Source of the DNA: a virus
Taxonomy: Duplodnaviria > Heunggongvirae > Uroviricota > Caudoviricetes
Length of the DNA: 6,111 nucleotides
Direction: 5' to 3' (one strand)
Virus record (IMG/VR): IMGVR_UViG_2609459846_000008
Under the pieces are notes generated by a model, which saw only the letters and a list, made by a program, of their open reading frames with translations, was not told where the DNA came from and made no database searches. Positions 1 through 6,111 of the stretch are shown here, piece by piece. Position numbers and translations under genes: made by a program. How positions within the stretch are numbered: position 1 is the stretch's first letter; every line of letters starts with the position of its first letter.

Positions 1-275
1 AACCGCTCCGGCTTCTTCCAGTGGTAAGTAATTTTTTCTTTCTCCTGGTACATCTCCACGCGGCGACGATATGACAACAACTCCAGAACTCTGGTGCGTA
101 TATTGCGTATATCCACGCCGTTAAGCTCGATACCGTCACGGCGCATCACCTCAGCCACCACACGCGCGTAATTTTCGGCTATCACGCTGTCCGGCTGCGT
201 GGCCTCCTGTTTGCCTGCTTCCTGGCTGATTCCGGTAACGCGACGGATTATTTTTAGTAGTTCGGTTTCGCTCAT
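1..275 (-). CDS. Hypothetical protein, N-terminal 91 codons only; gene continues beyond the window start
   Basis: ATG at 275..273 lies 5 nt after the large-terminase stop (283..281). The frame stays open for 91 codons to position 3 (MSETELLKIIRRVTGISQEAGKQEATQPDSVIAENYARVVAEVMRRDGIELNGVDIRNIRTRVLELLSYRRRVEMYQEKEKITYHWKKPER...). It is absent from the ORF track only because no stop falls inside the window. I recognise no family. Confidence 0.45.
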   Translation of the reverse strand, partial: MSETELLKIIRRVTGISQEAGKQEATQPDSVIAENYARVVAEVMRRDGIELNGVDIRNIRTRVLELLSYRRRVEMYQEKEKITYHWKKPER

Positions 276-280
276 TCTCG

Positions 281-1942
281 TCATACCCCATCAAACGCCG
301 CAAGCCGCTCTTTGTGGCTGTCGCTCATATCAAATGCAAATTCCTCATGTTCTGCCTGGAATGTGCCAAACGCCATCAGAGCCGCAACGCTCGGGTCTAT
401 CTTGTTGGATGATTTTTTCTTGTTCGGCTTGATATTGGCGTTCGCGTCACTCTGCATCACAACATTACTCATTGACCAGGCCAGCACCGGATCGCCACGA
501 TGCACAATCACCTTCCGGTTAACAAAAACTTCGAACGATTTCGCCGCCGGACTGAAACGAAGGTATGTTTGCGGGAACGGCTCCACCTCAAATCCTGCCC
601 CCTGTAGCTGCGTCCTCAGGTGCGTGGCGTTCCATGTATCGAAGCCCACCAGCCTGATATTGAAATTCTCTGCATCCGCCATGATGTCATCACGGATACG
701 GTCATAATCAATGCAGTCACCCGGTGTTGTGCGTATCCAGCCCACCTTTACCCACTGGCGATAGATGGCGCGGTTTTTATTGGCGGGGGTCTGTAGCTGA
801 AATTCAGGCAGATAGTGACGGGAAACCAGCATAATCTTTTTACCGACCGGAAAGGCATAGCACACGCTGGAAATATCGCTGGTTGATGATAAGTCCAGCC
901 CCGCGTAGCACTCCTGCCCGTATAAATCCGCCTCCGCGAACGTTCCGGCGCACTCCGCCCATGCACCGTTACCCATCCACGGCGTAGCCCCCTGACACCA
1001 GATATTGAATCGCTTGGTGAGCATTTCCACCCACTGCGACGGAATACCCCGCGCTTTCTGGATGGTTGAGGCCAGTTTTTCACGATCGACGGAAACATCG
1101 ATATTGGGATTCGCCTTTATCCACATCGCCGGATCGTCAACCTCGCTTTCATCATCCAGCTCGTAAATCAGCACGAACATGGATTCGTTCACCTCTTCAC
1201 CATCCAGTATCTGGCAGCAATAGTCATAGTGTTGTTTACAGGCTGAAACAACGTTGCTCCCCGATGTGGTGATGGCAAATAACAGCCCCTCCGGACGCGC
1301 CCCCATTCCCAGTTCAAGCGCGGAATAAACCCCGTTGTCAGGGTGCAGGTGATATTCATCCACAATGGCAAGACTCGGGTTTGTACCTTCAATGGTTGCC
1401 GCTTTTGCTGCCAGTGGCTTTAACAGGCTGTTGGTTTTCGGGTGTATCACCTTGTGTGCCTGAATATTTACCCGCTTTCGTAACGGTCGGGATAAAAGGC
1501 ACATCTGACGCGCATCATCAAACACGATCCGCGCCTGATCACGACTCACGGCGGCGGTGTAAATATCCTGCTGCCCGTTTTCCATAACCAGAAACCAGTT
1601 AGCCAGGATAGCGGCGACCGTGGATTTGGCATTTTTTCGCGGCACTTCAATGAATGCGCTGGTGTATTTGCGCCGTCCGGTGGCCTTAACCTTAAAGCCC
1701 AGGATGCACGCAAAGGCGAACTGCTGCCACGGCTCCAGCTCAATGGGGCTACCGCGCATTGCGCCTTTTACGTGCGGACACACCCTGGAAAAGGCAATAA
1801 ACCGCTCCACGACCTCCGGATCGAACGTGTAAAGGGGGTTTTCAAGGTCAGAAAAATACCGTTTAACGGCCTGTTTCAGTCGTTTACAGGCCGTAATTTT
1901 GCTGTTTTTTACGCCTTCTGCGTACTCATGCCAGGCGGTCAA
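281..1942 (-). CDS. terL: Phage terminase large subunit (Terminase_1-like ATPase/nuclease)
   Basis: 553-aa ORF with a P-loop-like motif (FIEVPRKNAKST), a Walker-B-like LAIVDEYH and a long C-terminal nuclease-sized region; overall resemblance to large terminases of HK97/lambda-like phages. The start codon at 1942 is TTG (plus strand reads caa), preceded by AGAGGA 5 nt upstream. It overlaps the small-terminase stop by 17 nt. Confidence 0.88.
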   Translation of the reverse strand: MTAWHEYAEGVKNSKITACKRLKQAVKRYFSDLENPLYTFDPEVVERFIAFSRVCPHVKGAMRGSPIELEPWQQFAFACILGFKVKATGRRKYTSAFIEVPRKNAKSTVAAILANWFLVMENGQQDIYTAAVSRDQARIVFDDARQMCLLSRPLRKRVNIQAHKVIHPKTNSLLKPLAAKAATIEGTNPSLAIVDEYHLHPDNGVYSALELGMGARPEGLLFAITTSGSNVVSACKQHYDYCCQILDGEEVNESMFVLIYELDDESEVDDPAMWIKANPNIDVSVDREKLASTIQKARGIPSQWVEMLTKRFNIWCQGATPWMGNGAWAECAGTFAEADLYGQECYAGLDLSSTSDISSVCYAFPVGKKIMLVSRHYLPEFQLQTPANKNRAIYRQWVKVGWIRTTPGDCIDYDRIRDDIMADAENFNIRLVGFDTWNATHLRTQLQGAGFEVEPFPQTYLRFSPAAKSFEVFVNRKVIVHRGDPVLAWSMSNVVMQSDANANIKPNKKKSSNKIDPSVAALMAFGTFQAEHEEFAFDMSDSHKERLAAFDGV

Positions 1943-2282
1943 GCTCGTCCTCTTCCTCTGTTTCCGGTGGATTTCTGCGGCGACTTACCGGGTCAAAACC
2001 CAGCAAAGAAGCCATTTTGATCATTATTCTTTCAGCGTCAGCCTTTGCGCTCAGGGCGGGGTTTCTGCTCTCGCTGCCCTGACTGTTAACAATGCTGAAC
2101 CCGCGCGTGGCAAGGTCTTCGACGGCTTTGCGGTATATGGAGTAGTTAACGCAATACAGCTCCAGATTGCTCCAGTCGGCGGGGGTAAGGTCTTCCCGTC
2201 CGGAAAGCTGGCGCGATTTTTCCTTCCACTGCCTGACCGCGATTTCATCCAGGTAAGCGGGGGCTTTTGGTGGTCTTGCCAT
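1926..2282 (-). CDS. terS: Phage terminase small subunit, P27 family
   Basis: Translation from the internal ATG at 2282 begins MARPPKAPAYLDE... and carries the P27-family core (LTPADWSNLELYCVNYSIYRKAVEDL ... NPALSAKADAERIMIKMASLLGFDP). The ORF-track start at 2423 adds 47 residues that do not resemble TerS, so 2282 is preferred. This is shorter than a typical P27 TerS. Confidence 0.75.
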   Translation of the reverse strand: MARPPKAPAYLDEIAVRQWKEKSRQLSGREDLTPADWSNLELYCVNYSIYRKAVEDLATRGFSIVNSQGSESRNPALSAKADAERIMIKMASLLGFDPVSRRRNPPETEEEDELDRLA

Positions 2283-2570
2283 GTTCTTTTTTCGCCCAAT
2301 TATTTTCAAAAAAATTCCCGTGCACAAAAATTTGAGGAGGCGGTCGGTGTCCGGCAGGGACGGTTTCGTCCTGAAAACCACCCCCACCCCCTCTGACGGC
2401 CTCACCAGCGATTGCGAAAACATTCCATGACCTCGCGGTCACGGTCGGTTAATTGCTTCGCTGTGGTGCGTTCTGTGCGCCCTGTCCTGTTGGCTTTGTG
2501 CCCTGTCTCCTGTGTCTTCCATAAGTCACGCTGCCTTATCAGTCCACGTATCAGCCTGGTTTGCTCCTGT
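2283..2570. promoter_or_regulatory. HNH-TerS intergenic region; candidate cos / terminase-recognition region with possible promoter
   Basis: About 290 bp between the HNH stop and the preferred TerS start. Contains CTGT-rich imperfect direct repeats (2461..2516), a G-tract on the minus strand (plus ccacccccacccc, 2379..2391), a small hairpin (ggacg-gttt-cgtcc, 2358..2371) and an AT-rich block (2286..2335). On the minus strand that block holds a possible sigma70-like pair: -35 TTGTGC (2327..2322), 17-bp spacer, -10 AATAAT (2304..2299). In HK97-like phages cos lies between the HNH and terS genes. Confidence 0.3.
2461..2516. repeat. Imperfect direct repeats built on a CTGT core
   Basis: CTGT occurs six times in 53 bp. 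Two about 17-bp copies, tgtgcgccctgtcctgt (2474..2490) and tgtgccctgtctcctgt (2497..2513), sit 23 bp apart. Confidence 0.4.
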
Positions 2571-3011
2571 TCAGTCATCATCGCCATACATCCAGTCGTT
2601 ACGGTGTGCTGCCCGTTCTTCCTGCTCGCGATACATGCCCGCCTTACGGTTCGCTTTCGTGGCTGGATCTTCCCGTGTCGTCTTACGGTTGTGGCACGTC
2701 TGGCACAATGCCTGGTGGTTCCACTCAGGCCAGAAGAGAACATCACCGCCGCCATTGATGGGGATGATGTGATCCACCACAAGAGCTGGCGTATAAATCC
2801 CCTTAGCCAGACAACGCACGCATAACGGGTTTTTGCTCAGGTACAGGGCGCGGTATTTGTCCCACTGTCGGGAATACCCGCGCGCGCGGCGGTGTCCCCG
2901 TCTGGCATCCTCTGCACGCCATACAGCCCGTCTGTGCTCTTCACACTTGCCGGACTTCACGCGCTTATTACAGCCCGGCTCAGTGCATCGCCTTAATGGT
3001 TGCCACGGCAT
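2571..3011 (-). CDS. Phage-associated HNH endonuclease
   Basis: 146-aa ORF with ATG at 3011..3009. Cys-rich N-terminus (CTEPGCNKRVKSGKCEEH) and a canonical HNH core (VVDHIIPINGGG ... NHQALCQTCHNRKT). Its start overlaps the upstream connector-gene stop (TGATG). Confidence 0.88.
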   Translation of the reverse strand: MPWQPLRRCTEPGCNKRVKSGKCEEHRRAVWRAEDARRGHRRARGYSRQWDKYRALYLSKNPLCVRCLAKGIYTPALVVDHIIPINGGGDVLFWPEWNHQALCQTCHNRKTTREDPATKANRKAGMYREQEERAAHRNDWMYGDDD

Positions 3012-3313
3012 CAGTACACCCCCACATCACGATAAACCGACCAGAGCGCAGAAATAGCCATAGGCAGTTCAGACTGCTCCACTGGTGAAACTGCTTCCCT
3101 GTTCTCGTACAGGAAAGCGATGTACATCAGGCAACCAACACGCATTGCCGGGGTAAATTCCAGCCCGTCTTCAAAACGTTTCCCGATATGCTTCTGGCAG
3201 GCTTCCAGCGCCGCATCGGTATACATTTTCAGAAGTTCGCCTTCACCGGATAAATCATCATCAAGTCGAAGATGTGCCCTGACTTCATCAGGTGTAATTC
3301 TGGCTTCACTCAT
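3011..3313 (-). CDS. gp6-like head-tail connector protein
   Basis: Translation from the ATG at 3313 (MSEARITPDEVRAHLRLDDD...FLYENREA..., about 100 aa) matches the size and the characteristic N-terminal E-x-x-R-A-H-L-R-L-D motif of HK97 gp6-like connector proteins. GGGAG Shine-Dalgarno 6-7 nt upstream. The ORF-track start at 3376 is GTG and adds 21 residues with no support. Overlaps the portal stop by 8 nt. Confidence 0.7.
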   Translation of the reverse strand: MSEARITPDEVRAHLRLDDDLSGEGELLKMYTDAALEACQKHIGKRFEDGLEFTPAMRVGCLMYIAFLYENREAVSPVEQSELPMAISALWSVYRDVGVY

Positions 3314-4520
3314 CTTTTCTCCCTTTAATTTCCACAGTCTGTTTCCATGCCTGGCTGAACTCATCACCACCTTCACGCGGCGGCATACCCTCGCGTTCGC
3401 GAGCTTCGTTCGGATTCATGATCCCGCTCTTAATCCCTTTCTCATACGTGGCATAACGTTCGGTGGGTGTGGCGCGCAGTAAATCGGCTGAATCAAACTC
3501 AACCAGATAACGGGTACCAGGTACGGGAGAAGTCACCAGCAAAGCGGCCTTGATTTGCTGTTCGAAGTTCGCCAGCCACGGGCGCATTGTCATGGTCAGA
3601 AATGCGCGGCTCGCCTCACTGAAATTGCTGTAGGTGCTGTTGCTGTATTCCTGAAGAAAAATCGGCGACACGTTGAACATCCTGGCGATGTCTTCAATGG
3701 AGAAGCGACGGGAGGCCAGCCATTCCGCATCCTGGTTACTCATCCCCAGCTGCCTGTAATCCATGCCCCCTTCAAGGATTGGCGTTTTTCCGGCATTTTT
3801 CGCCCCCTTGTAGCGTTCCAGTGCGTCTAATGCCTGTTTACCTTTCACGCCGTCCAGCCATTCACCTGACGTGATAATCCCTGCCGCCATCATGCCATCT
3901 TTCATAATGCTGGCTCCGTGACGCTGTTGAGCAAGGCCAAGCCCCAGCGCCTCACGGCAAATCGTGACGGGGGAACGCCCCAGAAAGCCATCATCCGAGG
4001 CATAGCGGAGATGCAGAACTTCTTCCTGTAAATACGTGCGCACCGTTCCTGTACAGGGTTCGGTGATGGTATAGCGGTATTTGTGTGTGCCTGTGCGTTC
4101 CGGTACAACACACCCCGGCGCATAAGGATGAAGTGATTTTGGCTGCCCGTCCCGCCCCCACTCAATAACCGCATAGGCGTTACCGTTCAGCAGGCAGTGA
4201 CGCATCATTGTGCGTTTAAACTGGTAAGGTGTCAGGCACGAATTAGGCTGCTCATTCAGCAGAATATCTACCGGGTGACTGTCCAGCCATTCCCGCGCCT
4301 CTCTGCCCTTATCATTGCGTACCAGATACAGGTAACACGGCATCGTGGCCACCGCCTCAGCGATGACAGAAACCGCGTTCATCACAGCAGGCAATGATTC
4401 AGCCGTCCCGGCAGAAACATATTCTCCGGATCCGGTATTTGGTACACCAGACAACGCCAGAAAATCATCAATGGACAGGTTACGCAGATCGCTTTTTTTA
4501 CGACTAAAAGGCCACCACAT
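3306..4520 (-). CDS. Phage portal protein, HK97 family
   Basis: About 404 aa from the ATG at 4520 (MWWPFSRK...). Carries portal hallmarks: LLNGNAYA, VLHLRYASDDGFLGRSPV, RRFSIEDIARMFNVSPIFL, RPWLANFEQ. The ORF-track start at 4610 is TTG and overlaps the protease C-terminus out of frame. Protease stop and portal start are arranged TGA-T-ATG. Confidence 0.9.
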   Translation of the reverse strand: MWWPFSRKKSDLRNLSIDDFLALSGVPNTGSGEYVSAGTAESLPAVMNAVSVIAEAVATMPCYLYLVRNDKGREAREWLDSHPVDILLNEQPNSCLTPYQFKRTMMRHCLLNGNAYAVIEWGRDGQPKSLHPYAPGCVVPERTGTHKYRYTITEPCTGTVRTYLQEEVLHLRYASDDGFLGRSPVTICREALGLGLAQQRHGASIMKDGMMAAGIITSGEWLDGVKGKQALDALERYKGAKNAGKTPILEGGMDYRQLGMSNQDAEWLASRRFSIEDIARMFNVSPIFLQEYSNSTYSNFSEASRAFLTMTMRPWLANFEQQIKAALLVTSPVPGTRYLVEFDSADLLRATPTERYATYEKGIKSGIMNPNEAREREGMPPREGGDEFSQAWKQTVEIKGRKDE

Positions 4521-4521
4521 A

Positions 4522-5082
4522 TCACAACCCCGCCAGTTCAGCCCAGCGATGACGATTATTTCCTGCCGGGCGTAATTCAGGGTACTGTGCAAACAACGAA
4601 CGGTGGGCAATCTCCACGCCGGATTCGGGATAAGCAGGCATCGATGTTATCGTGATTTCACGGAGTTCTGCTGCGGTTACAGTACGCAGATACGGTTTTT
4701 GCGCGATATTCCACTCCTCGCATAATGCGCGAAAGCCAAAGCTCATTCCTGTAATATCGCCACGTTCCACCAGCGTAAGCACATCTTTTCCAAGCTGGGT
4801 ATTTGGCGGTGTCAGTTCAAAACGTAGCCCGGTGTTATCCTCAGTCAGTACCAGTGAGCCGGATTTGGTACGCCCCAGCAGTCGGGTATAGTCATGCTCA
4901 TACAGACAGCGCACATCATTACCTGCCGCCAGATAGTCAGCAAAAGCCCCCGGCGTGAACTGTTCGCGAAACTCGTCCCAGATAATTTCTGAAAGGCTGT
5001 TCCAGCGAACGGCATAACCCACCAGTTTTTTATCGCTGGCGGTCAGTTCAGATGTACGGATTTCAAAATCGGTGTTTTTCAT
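4522..5082 (-). CDS. Prohead (head maturation) protease, HK97 family
   Basis: 186 aa from the ATG at 5082 with GGAG 8 nt upstream. Matches the HK97 protease pattern: FEIRT ... VGYAVRWN ... FTPGAF ... DVRCLYEHD ... LLGRT ... GLRFEL ... VERGDITGMSFGF ... AYPESGVEIAHRS. The ORF-track start at 5307 is TTG inside the upstream capsid gene. Confidence 0.85.
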   Translation of the reverse strand: MKNTDFEIRTSELTASDKKLVGYAVRWNSLSEIIWDEFREQFTPGAFADYLAAGNDVRCLYEHDYTRLLGRTKSGSLVLTEDNTGLRFELTPPNTQLGKDVLTLVERGDITGMSFGFRALCEEWNIAQKPYLRTVTAAELREITITSMPAYPESGVEIAHRSLFAQYPELRPAGNNRHRWAELAGL

Positions 5083-5102
5083 CGGTGTACTCCATAAAGC
5101 TG

Positions 5103-5123
5103 AAAAAGGAGGCCGAAGCCCCC
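5103..5123 (-). terminator. Rho-independent terminator candidate between capsid and protease genes
   Basis: Minus-strand RNA reads GGGGGC-UUCG-GCCUCC followed by UUUUU: a 6-bp GC-rich stem (one G-U pair), a UUCG tetraloop and a U5 tract. It starts 8 nt after the capsid stop (5134..5132) and sits about 20 nt before the protease start. Confidence 0.5.
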
Positions 5124-5131
5124 TTTGCTCA

Positions 5132-5747
5132 TTACTTGCCAGCCTGAATTTCCAGAATCTTGATGGCGTTCGAATCCACCACACCACCGCCCAGATATTT
5201 CTGGGTATAGATGTTAATGAATCCAGGCTCGCTGAAATCCGGACGGGTACGCGTACCGGTTTTATGGTCAACGATGAAATAACCGCGCTTAAAGTCACCG
5301 ACTGCAATCACACCGTCCGGCATAAATTCCAGATATTCAACCGGAAGCCCCAGCAGAGAATCAGGATCACCAGCCTGTAAACGATCGCGCCAGATGTAAT
5401 CACCAGTGGCATTTTTCAGTTTTTGTGCGGAGGCGGCTGTATTTGAGTTCATCACCCATACAGCTTTTTTGCGGTACTTATTGCGCAGCGTAAATTTCAG
5501 GTCAATCAGCATATCGGCGCTGAGACTGCCAGTCACTTTTTTCGTCTGGAGCGTACCGAAAGGACGGGTTTTGTCATTATCCGTAGTGCGCGGGAAAGTC
5601 AGGAAACCTTTGGCTTTTTTCTCGCCATCACCGGAAACCAGATCCGTTTCTTCGGTATCAACGAAAGTGTCGCCAATTTCAGAAGATAACCAGCCCATAA
5701 TATCGACTTCGGAAAAATCGATAATTTCCTGAGTGGTTTTCGGGTAA
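5132..5747 (-). pseudogene. Major capsid protein (HK97 family), C-terminal roughly 200 aa; 5' end removed by IS insertion
   Basis: The frame is open from 5761 down to the stop at 5134..5132. Motifs align to the C-terminal half of the HK97 capsid protein: LVSGDGEKKAKGF (compare LLNGDGTGDNLEGL), LLGLPVEYLEFMP (compare MWGLPVVPT), AVGDFKRGYFIVDHKTG. The upstream end runs into non-coding, repeat-rich IS terminal sequence, and a full-length capsid protein would be about 350-400 aa. The 5' boundary is approximate. Confidence 0.7.
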
Positions 5748-6111
5748 GTGCGTATTCCGCTCTATTCGATCACGGATTGGCATCGAAGTCCGATCAGCGA
5801 TTCGCATCCATTCGATCAACCGGGAACTTAACTTTTTCTACCGCTTTTTAACGCGTTTTTTCGCTGCTTTCCACTACCGGGGGATTTTTCCTCAGTGACT
5901 CTCCCTGAAGGACCACCCGGTGTGAGTTATGTACCAGTCTGTCCAGGATGGCATCTGCTGTTGTTGGGTTCTCCATCAGACCATGCCATTTATCTACCGG
6001 GAACTGACTTACCACTATCGTGCTGCTTTGTCCGTAACGATCCTCTATGAGCTCCAGAAGGTCATTACACTGGGCGTTACTTAACTGTTCCAGCCCCAGA
6101 TCGTCCAGGAT
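5748..6111 (-). mobile_element. IS21-family insertion sequence, terminal part (continues beyond window end)
   Basis: 3' end of an istB-like gene followed by about 100 bp of non-coding sequence with short iterated motifs: attcgatca (5764..5772 and 5810..5818), cgatca (x3), gatt[g/c]gcatc (5775..5785 and 5799..5809). Multiple terminal repeats are typical of IS21-family ends. The capsid frame is cut off here. The boundary is approximate (about 5730-5765), and the tg at 5748-5749 would fit the family's TG...CA ends. Confidence 0.6.
5848..6111 (-). CDS. istB: IstB-like transposition helper ATPase (IS21 family), C-terminal 87 codons
   Basis: Minus-strand translation from the window edge: ILDDLGLEQLSNAQCNDLLELIEDRYGQSSTIVVSQFPVDKWHGLMENPTTADAILDRLVHNSHRVVLQGESLRKNPPVVESSEKTR, stop at 5850..5848. 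Walker-B-like ILDDLG and the ILDRLVHNSH...GESLRK tail are characteristic of IstB/DnaC-type AAA+ proteins. Missing from the ORF track because the start lies outside the window. Confidence 0.75.
   Translation of the reverse strand: MLDDLGLEQLSNAQCNDLLELIEDRYGQSSTIVVSQFPVDKWHGLMENPTTADAILDRLVHNSHRVVLQGESLRKNPPVVESSEKTR

Follow-up and report, generated by a model that had tools for sequence, protein, structure and literature searches.

A probable cos site between the HNH endonuclease and small terminase genes of a capsid-forming phage-inducible chromosomal island

The DNA considered here, a 6,111-nt stretch of IMG/VR virus record IMGVR_UViG_2609459846_000008 (the window), carries a set of phage-like morphogenesis and packaging genes, and the question that it raises is where the packaged DNA would be cut. 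An original prediction, made from the sequence alone, had placed a candidate cohesive-end site (cos) or terminase-recognition site between the gene for an HNH endonuclease and that for the small terminase (terS), the position of cos in HK97-like phages. Our analysis assigns the window to the packaging end of a capsid-forming phage-inducible chromosomal island (cf-PICI), a satellite and not an HK97-like prophage, and indicates that positions 2300 to 2390 are very probably its cos site. The location of the predicted site is thus upheld. We read the segment as cos because it is flanked by genes for an HNH protein, a P27-family TerS and an HK97-type large terminase (TerL), because its sequence blocks are conserved at fixed spacing, because it resembles physically mapped cos sites, and because particle-derived assemblies of related cf-PICIs break within it.

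RESULTS

Conserved blocks upstream of terS

All genes of the window lie on the minus strand, and the blocks described below are given in that direction. The HNH gene (2571-3011), encoding a packaging accessory nuclease, was identified by matches to Pfam PF01844 (E = 9e-10) and phrog_144 (E = 7e-45) and by the PGAP annotation of an intact relative, L001. It is followed by a small gene (2402-2578), discussed below, and then by terS (1926-2282; P27 family, Pfam PF05119, E = 1.6e-23, and phrog_83) and terL (281-1942; ATPase and nuclease, Pfam PF03354 and PF20441, families that HK97 gp2 also matches). The original prediction had treated the 288 nt from 2283 to 2570 as a single noncoding stretch. 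Since 2402-2578 is protein coding, the true intergenic region is 119 nt long (2283-2401), and the candidate cos core within it (2300-2390) sits 18 to 108 nt upstream of the terS ATG at 2282.

To describe the core, the window was aligned with 31 diverged IMG/VR relatives, a census was made of 123 unique upstream regions from IMG/VR and from 71 GTDB genomes, and an anchored profile was built over 91 loci. In the profile, the G-tract GGGGTGGGGG (2390-2381; 1.57 bits per position) comes first; its extended reading, GGGGGTGGGGG, occupies 2381-2391, and the tract was near-invariant in the alignment, with A in place of the first G in 1 of 32 relatives. It is followed by the TTTTCAGGAC block (2377-2368; 1.14 bits), a variable spacer (2367-2352; 0.62 bits) and a C-rich tract, GACACCGACCGCCTCCTC (2351-2334; 1.43 bits), in which the nicks and a 3' cohesive end are predicted. 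Next come AAATTTTT (2333-2326), the best-conserved block at 1.96 bits, and GTGCACGGGA (2325-2316; 1.27 bits), which together with the start of the following block form an inverted repeat, AAATT-N12-AATTT (palindrome I4). The last block is the T-tract ATTTTTTTGAAAATAA (2315-2300; 1.68 bits), invariant in the aligned enterobacterial relatives, and a second variable spacer containing the terS ribosome-binding region (2299-2283; 0.64 bits) completes the region. The G-tract, the AT-rich block (2300-2333) and the short hairpin (2355-2373) that had been pointed out in the original prediction are therefore all present as sequence features, and the first two are the best-conserved parts of the candidate cos in the alignment, the census and the profile alike.

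The spacing within the core was fixed. The distance from the G-tract to the motif CAAATTTTT was 56 nt in 52 of 70 loci (range, 54 to 57), and that from CAAATTTTT to the T-tract was 21 nt in 69 of 70, while the distance from the T-tract to the terS ATG varied from 29 to 39 nt. The same layout was found in the Pasteurella cf-PICI Pmp8, which has an HNH-terS gap of 127 nt and a TerS 61% identical to that of the window, and in elements of Haemophilus, Gilliamella, Xenorhabdus, Photorhabdus, Serratia, Erwinia and Aeromonas. Across orders of the Gammaproteobacteria the blocks thus held at 1.4 to 2.0 bits per position, the spacers at about 0.6. Synonymous sites of the adjacent small open reading frame (ORF) differed at 61 to 86% of positions between the window and other clades, whereas the blocks were invariant or nearly so, and we therefore conclude that selection acts on the DNA itself.

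Two departures from this layout were seen. Upstream of terS in Xenorhabdus hominickii (L149) the G-tract has become a tandem array, GGGGTAGGGGTAGGGGTAGGGGTAGGGG, which may reflect slippage at the G-tract or selection on its length. In two Rodentibacter loci (L168 and L169) the usual distance of about 35 nt from the T-tract block to terS has grown to 118 to 185 nt, and these elements therefore carry an insertion between the cos core and the gene.

Similarity to physically mapped cos sites

The GenBank records of phages HK97, phiE125 and D3 start and end at the cohesive ends, and hnh is the last gene in each. The terS gene begins at +50 in HK97, +46 in phiE125 and +37 in D3, and a cut after CTCAAA (between 2331 and 2330) would put its start in the window at about +49. 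The overhang of the phiE125 type is a 10-base 3' extension, 5'-CGCCCGCTTC-3' (PMC2920897), and the last 10 nt of the phiE125 record are exactly CGCCCGCTTC; the HK97 overhang is also 10 nt (10.1101/2023.07.17.549218).

The window sequence GGGGTGGGGGTGGTTTTCAGGACGAAACCGTCCCTGCCGGACACCGACCGCCTCCTCAAATTTTTGTGCACGGGAATTTTTTTGAAAATAA was aligned with the junctions of phiE125 (GGGGAGGGGGGAGAAAAAGTCTGGAAGGTGCTGCCTTCGGGACCGCCCGCTTC/GTCGAATTTTCACGCCCGCGAAATTAAAAATTC), D3 (GGGGTGGGGCGGGTCAAAACCTTAGAACCTTTCGTTAGGACACCGCGCCCCCA/GGTCTTTTTCCATTTCC) and HK97 (GGGCAGGGGGGGGGATCAAATCTTCAAAACCTTTGCCCCAAATGACCGCCGCCAAA/GTTTGAATTTAACGCTAACCCGATTTTTTTAG), giving global alignment z-scores against mononucleotide shuffles of 5.8, 3.6 and 4.9, respectively. 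The C-rich tract aligned to the sequence that ends at the cut in each phage, namely GGGACCGCCCGCTTC in phiE125, GGACACCGCGCCCCCA in D3 and GACCGCCGCCAAA in HK97, and the AAATTTTT region aligned with GTCGAATTTTCACGC at the phiE125 left end. Projected onto the window, the three cuts fall between 2337 and 2336 (phiE125), 2335 and 2334 (D3), and 2331 and 2330 (HK97), and a nick zone of about 17 bp within the C-rich tract, at approximately 2330-2346, is predicted. By hand count, a G-tract precedes the mapped cut by 53 nt in D3, 53 nt in phiE125 and 56 nt in HK97, and that of the window lies 54 nt from the phiE125-projected cut.

The phiE125 TerS, like the window TerS, is a member of Pfam family PF05119. 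The HK97 TerS falls outside PF05119, no sequence similarity between it and the window TerS was detected, and a search for solved structures related to P27-family TerS found none; the HK97 TerS-DNA structure is therefore usable as an analogy only. HK97 TerS binds at +15 to +29 downstream of the cut, and its minimal site, CTAACCCGATTTTTT, contains an A-tract (10.1101/2023.07.17.549218). By that analogy, the T-tract block ATTTTTTTGAAAATAA, which occupies the equivalent position, is a predicted small-terminase recognition element.

Breaks in assemblies of particle DNA

The record vB_KppS-Ant (LR881103.1; 16,548 bp) was assembled with SPAdes from a Nextera XT library of particle DNA that, according to its authors, was induced from Klebsiella pneumoniae DSM 30104 (PMC8006926). 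Its gene content is that of a cf-PICI and corresponds to KpCIDSM30104; cohesive ends have been reported for the DNA of KpCIDSM30104 and other cf-PICIs (10.1101/2025.02.11.637232). The record represents the excised island linearized between the small ORF and terS: it ends with GGGGTGGGGGAGGTTTTCAGGAC and begins 22 nt before terS. The right end falls exactly after the TTTTCAGGAC block, so that 13 nt (AGG and TTTTCAGGAC) follow the G-tract. Taking ATCC 13883 and DSM 30104 as one type strain, we compared the record with the chromosomal copy of the former (L113): identity was 100% over 700 nt on one side and 1200 nt on the other, and exactly 69 nt (GAACACGAGGGCGCCAGGCACCACCCGCCCCCTCAAA/TTTTTTCGCACGGTGATTTTTTTGAAAATAAA) were missing across its ends, corresponding to window positions 2367-2299 with the midpoint at 2333. 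Tagmentation libraries lose about 30 to 40 nt at each tip of linear molecules. Had the template been circular or permuted at random, no gap would have been left.

In a second record, PQ569648.1, 90.6 kb of phage sequence are joined to a 15.9-kb segment that aligns collinearly with positions 24-16506 of vB_KppS-Ant at 86% identity. This cf-PICI segment was thus linearized in the same interval, with 134 nt missing. Two independent breaks within at most 134 nt of a 16.5-kb element are very unlikely to arise by chance. The contig ends in IMG/VR, located by the G-tract pattern, covered 27 loci only, mostly prophage predictions, and were uninformative on ends, as was ECO95 1-6-1 (OR845787.1), a 1.6-kb internal fragment.

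Some features of these records deserve mention in their own right. vB_KppS-Ant was published as a filamentous single-stranded DNA phage representing a new genus. That it is the cf-PICI of K. pneumoniae DSM 30104 is shown by the genes that it carries and by its identity to the chromosome of ATCC 13883. PQ569648.1 is deposited as the "complete genome" of Klebsiella phage P12620-1 (106.5 kb). Within 88000-106503 the junction falls at terS codon 2, the record ends 5 nt before the small-ORF stop, and the whole looks like a chimera of a phage of about 90.6 kb and a 15.9-kb cf-PICI segment. One metagenome contig (L061) begins 18 nt before the G-tract, which we treated as chance.

These ends bear directly on whether cleavage within the gap might instead occur at or next to the G-tract (2381-2390), which is almost invariant; cos phages typically have G/C-rich overhangs. 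We consider cleavage there very unlikely, as the right end of vB_KppS-Ant lies 13 nt past the G-tract, so that the end is downstream of 2368 and cleavage at the G-tract is excluded for the Klebsiella element, and as the equivalent G-tract of D3, phiE125 and HK97 lies 53 to 56 nt inside the right end and not at the cut.

Promoter, terminator and RNA structure predictions

The blocks lie directly upstream of terS and are AT-rich, and they might therefore serve in transcriptional or translational control of terS-terL, as a promoter, a terminator or antiterminator, or a leader, rather than as a packaging site. A promoter in the AT-rich block had in fact been proposed in the original prediction. 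On the gene strand, two weak terminator-like sites were found (2444-2425 and 2399-2384), but there was no sigma-70-like promoter, and the promoter proposal falls accordingly. The sole sigma-70-like match was antisense (plus strand, 2276-2303; TTGCCA-16-AATTAT); it overlaps the terS start and is probably a chance match in AT-rich DNA. An Rfam search of positions 2100-2800 returned no family at an E value of 1 or better.

The short hairpin CAGGACGAAACCGTCCCTG (2355-2373, minus strand) lies in the variable spacer, and it proved to be weak and clade specific. Its stability in the clade of the window was z of about -0.8 to -1.1 relative to shuffled sequence, and the folding energy of the segment from the G-tract to CAAATTTTT in 56 distinct relatives had a median z of -0.3, with only 2 relatives below -2. 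The hairpin is thus present as predicted, but it is neither conserved nor more stable than shuffled sequence; it was rejected as an element of the site and is probably not functional.

A control region is accordingly a highly unlikely explanation of the blocks: the predicted promoter is absent, no Rfam match or conserved fold was found, and the blocks keep a fixed spacing among themselves but not from the T-tract to the ATG. It would also leave the similarity to mapped cos sites and the breaks in the particle-derived assemblies unexplained. With regard to other DNA-bending or binding elements, no convincing match to the consensus of integration host factor (IHF; WATCAANNNNTTR) was seen near the G-tract by eye, no formal test having been made, and no conserved direct repeats of the kind that define a lambda-type cosB were found within 2283-2401.

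A small conserved gene between hnh and the cos core

The ORF at 2402-2578 (minus strand; 58 aa, or 61 aa with the PGAP start at 2587) had been considered an artifact of DNA repeats. Instead, its product matched the profile of phrog_3173, a family of unknown function, over the full length (residues 1 to 57 of a 57-position profile; E = 7.7e-28). The ATG at 2578 overlaps the HNH stop codon (ATGACTGA), and this ATGAnTGA arrangement recurs in diverged relatives. The frame was open in about 50 of 59 unique upstream regions of the IMG/VR relatives despite strong divergence of the protein, whose variants (MTEQEQTRLIRGLIRQRD, MNEKDVVNLYQSLARCRD and MTEQEINQMMAGLRRSRD, for example) all share the ending RDRE.xECFRNR. 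The ratio of nonsynonymous to synonymous changes (dN/dS, Nei-Gojobori) was 0.23 to 0.40 in eight of the nine informative pairs; synonymous differences ranged from 0.29 to 0.86. The ORF is thus under purifying selection, and among the Escherichia coli copies the central segment differed by in-frame indels only. The family match, the selection, the in-frame indels and the conserved overlap with the HNH stop argue that 2402-2578 is a real, translationally coupled, conserved gene. It is an accessory gene, since it is absent from the Pasteurella, Xenorhabdus, Haemophilus and Gilliamella elements and broken in a few copies.

The broken alleles (L009, L016, L039, L078, L079, L051 and L060) comprise a nonsense mutation (TTAK*), an 11-nt frameshifting deletion and a larger deletion of the 3' half, each with the cos core kept, and the gene appears to be dispensable or decaying in some lineages. 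In an AlphaFold2 model of the protein, a helix at residues 3-34 (predicted local distance difference test [pLDDT] score above 90) is joined by a disordered basic linker (35-44) to a second helix (45-55), with an overall pLDDT of 75.

The repeats to which the original prediction had drawn attention lie within this gene. CTGT occurs seven times in 2283-2570 (at 2461, 2473, 2482, 2487, 2503, 2510 and 2567) against an expectation of 2.3 +/- 1.3 from dinucleotide-preserving shuffles (P of about 0.001), and a pair of 17-nt imperfect direct repeats (2474-2490 and 2497-2513) is 76% identical. The enrichment is therefore real. However, all seven copies are inside the small ORF, six of them in the central segment coding for the end of helix 1 and the linker, and the low-complexity CTGT/ACAG segment (2461-2513, minus strand) codes for the disordered basic linker TQETGHKANRTGRTERTT. 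Part of it is a clade-specific 21-nt in-frame stretch that appears as a seven-codon gap in other clades, and syntenic relatives carry zero to three CTGT/ACAG copies against the seven of the window; on alignment with such relatives, the comparison that the original prediction had itself proposed, the idea that the repeats are small-terminase binding sites fails. That the repeats in 2460-2570 serve as small-terminase sites in the style of lambda cosB or its R sites, with the ORF an annotation artifact, is thus extremely improbable in spite of the enrichment, given that syntenic relatives lack the repeats, that the Pasteurella, Xenorhabdus and Haemophilus elements lack the whole segment while keeping the cos core, and that the ORF is a PHROG member under purifying selection with in-frame indels.

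The repeat linker is an in-frame indel hotspot among the E. coli copies, with deletions of 3, 7 and 11 codons and a duplication of 3 codons, which suggests repeat-mediated slippage tolerated in a disordered segment.

As to function, the phrog_3173 protein sits between hnh and cos and is restricted to the enterobacterial branch of the islands, and it may assist packaging. In the packaging module of EcCIEDL933, mutation of "hypothetical gene 1792", with which the small ORF is only possibly identical, severely lowers transfer (10.1101/2022.09.08.507074). A more specific idea, which we regard as rather doubtful, is that the protein, perhaps itself gene 1792, is a packaging-specificity factor acting on the adjacent cos or on the TerS/HNH complex, that it helps to separate satellite packaging from that of HK97-type helpers, and that the indel-prone linker tunes the interaction.

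The island and its other genes

Upstream of hnh, also on the minus strand, the window carries genes for a gp6-like connector (3011-3313), the portal (3306-4532), a prohead protease (4522-5085) and the C-terminal part of an HK97-fold major capsid protein (5132-5698), as well as an insertion sequence (IS)-derived C-terminal fragment of an IS21-family IstB protein (5848-6015). The region was found in 161 of 5,426 complete E. coli genomes at at least 90% identity. The intact relative L001, which is 99.8% identical over window positions 1-5748, is a 15-kb island between allC and allE that contains an integrase, a small helix-turn-helix regulator, a primase and the capsid-to-terL module, with no tail genes in the annotation. 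The HK97-like phage context to which the original prediction had referred is therefore replaced by that of a satellite, because L001 shows the architecture and gene order described for proteobacterial cf-PICIs (10.1101/2022.09.08.507074). Taken together, the L001 annotation and the Pfam matches of the window display the features of a cf-PICI: a size of about 15 kb, int, an alpA-type regulator, primase/rep, the order capsid-protease-portal-connector-hnh-terS-terL, and no tail genes. The island is of the EcCIEDL933/KpCIDSM30104 type, with the order int, alpA-like, primase, capsid, protease, portal, connector, hnh, small ORF, terS and terL.

Homology to L001 stops at 5748/5749, where an IS21-family element (window 5749-6111) cuts the capsid gene, with about 176 N-terminal codons missing. 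The cf-PICI copy in the window can probably not build its own capsids, though cos, HNH, terS and terL are intact.

Three further points of gene content were noted. Between portal and HNH there is a single connector gene in the window-type island (3011-3313), and the Klebsiella element has two (gp9-like and connector; vB_KppS-Ant, 15296-15923). Downstream of terL, L001 encodes a 94-aa hypothetical protein (9842-10126). Downstream of terL in vB_KppS-Ant is a gene annotated as "tail length tape measure protein" (2036-4333), unexpected for an element said to be without tail genes.

DISCUSSION

cf-PICIs, HNH-dependent cos packaging and the cos sites of the comparison phages are already known, and a cos site at this position is to be expected. 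What this analysis adds is its placement: the cf-PICI cos core is confined to about 90 bp and the predicted nick zone to about 17 bp. In addition, a supposed artifact, which a reader or a gene caller could dismiss, has been recovered as a small conserved gene.

The gene content, the conservation with fixed spacing, the similarity to mapped cos sites and the breaks in assemblies of particle DNA are observations, and from them we infer where exactly the nicks fall, what overhang they leave, where TerS makes contact and in which direction packaging runs. We propose that, after induction, the island would replicate as concatemers and its own P27-family TerS would recognize the AT-rich block immediately past the cut (AAATTTTT, GTGCAC and ATTTTTTTGAAAATAA; 2300-2333). 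TerL together with the HNH protein would then introduce staggered nicks in the C-rich tract, at about 2330-2346, to leave a 3' cohesive end of 9 to 10 nt, and packaging would start from the terS side and run to the next cos. The G-tract, about 54 nt upstream at a fixed distance, would be a conserved part of the site to which we assign no molecular role.

Several points weigh against this interpretation. The ends are placed by assembly breaks in related elements, which are indirect evidence, and the junctions of PQ569648.1 could be assembly artifacts. As much as 7 nt separates the three projected cuts, and the shuffles behind the similarity z-scores were of short, compositionally patchy sequences. 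The HK97 TerS is not detectably homologous to that of the window, so that the assignment of the T-tract as a TerS site is an analogy. Lastly, with the capsid gene of the window copy disrupted by an IS element, this strain may have ceased to use the site.

A cf-PICI, induced by a helper phage and using the helper's tails, makes small capsids of its own and fills them with its own DNA only, and cos is the DNA half of that specificity. A localized cos core offers a target for cos-swap tests of how satellite and helper are discriminated, and it should be useful for cf-PICI-based DNA delivery vehicles and for the annotation of satellites in genomes and viromes.

Compared with known systems, the site resembles lambda cos (cosQ-cosN-cosB) in having a nicking site flanked by a terminase-recognition region beside the small-terminase gene. 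In lambda, however, the overhang is 5' and 12 nt long, and R-site repeats and an IHF site are present, whereas conserved direct repeats are absent from the window and the homologous mapped sites have 3' overhangs; nor does the window system have an HNH-independent terminase. Among satellites, EcCIEDL933 and KpCIDSM30104 (Alqurainy et al. 2022 and He et al. 2025, preprints) share the architecture and the capsid-protease-portal-connector-hnh-terS-terL order, and the cos core and small ORF of the window are both present in KpCIDSM30104 (vB_KppS-Ant and L113). The cf-PICI papers that we examined report cohesive ends and give no cos coordinates.

The closest counterparts are the cos sites of phiE125 and phi644-2 (Burkholderia), D3 (Pseudomonas) and HK97 (E. 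coli), which likewise lie between hnh and terS with the cut about 37 to 50 nt before terS. In phiE125, D3 and HK97, as in the window, a G-tract is found about 53 to 56 nt upstream of the cut, a C-rich tract, (G)GAC(A)CCGCC, runs up to it, and an AATTT..ACGC block and a T/A-tract come just after the C-rich tract. The TerL and HNH Pfam families are common to HK97-type packaging and the window, and the phiE125 TerS is also of the P27 family. The differences are that the host element of the window is a 15-kb satellite and not a phage of 40 to 56 kb, that its morphogenesis genes lie upstream of hnh-cos-terS-terL, unlike those of the three phages, that its post-cut sequence ATTTTTTTGAAAATAA is lineage specific, and that its cut is a projection from alignment whereas the phage ends are physically mapped. 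That the window shares its layout with phiE125, D3 and HK97 suggests that HNH-dependent terminases have a cos grammar in common.

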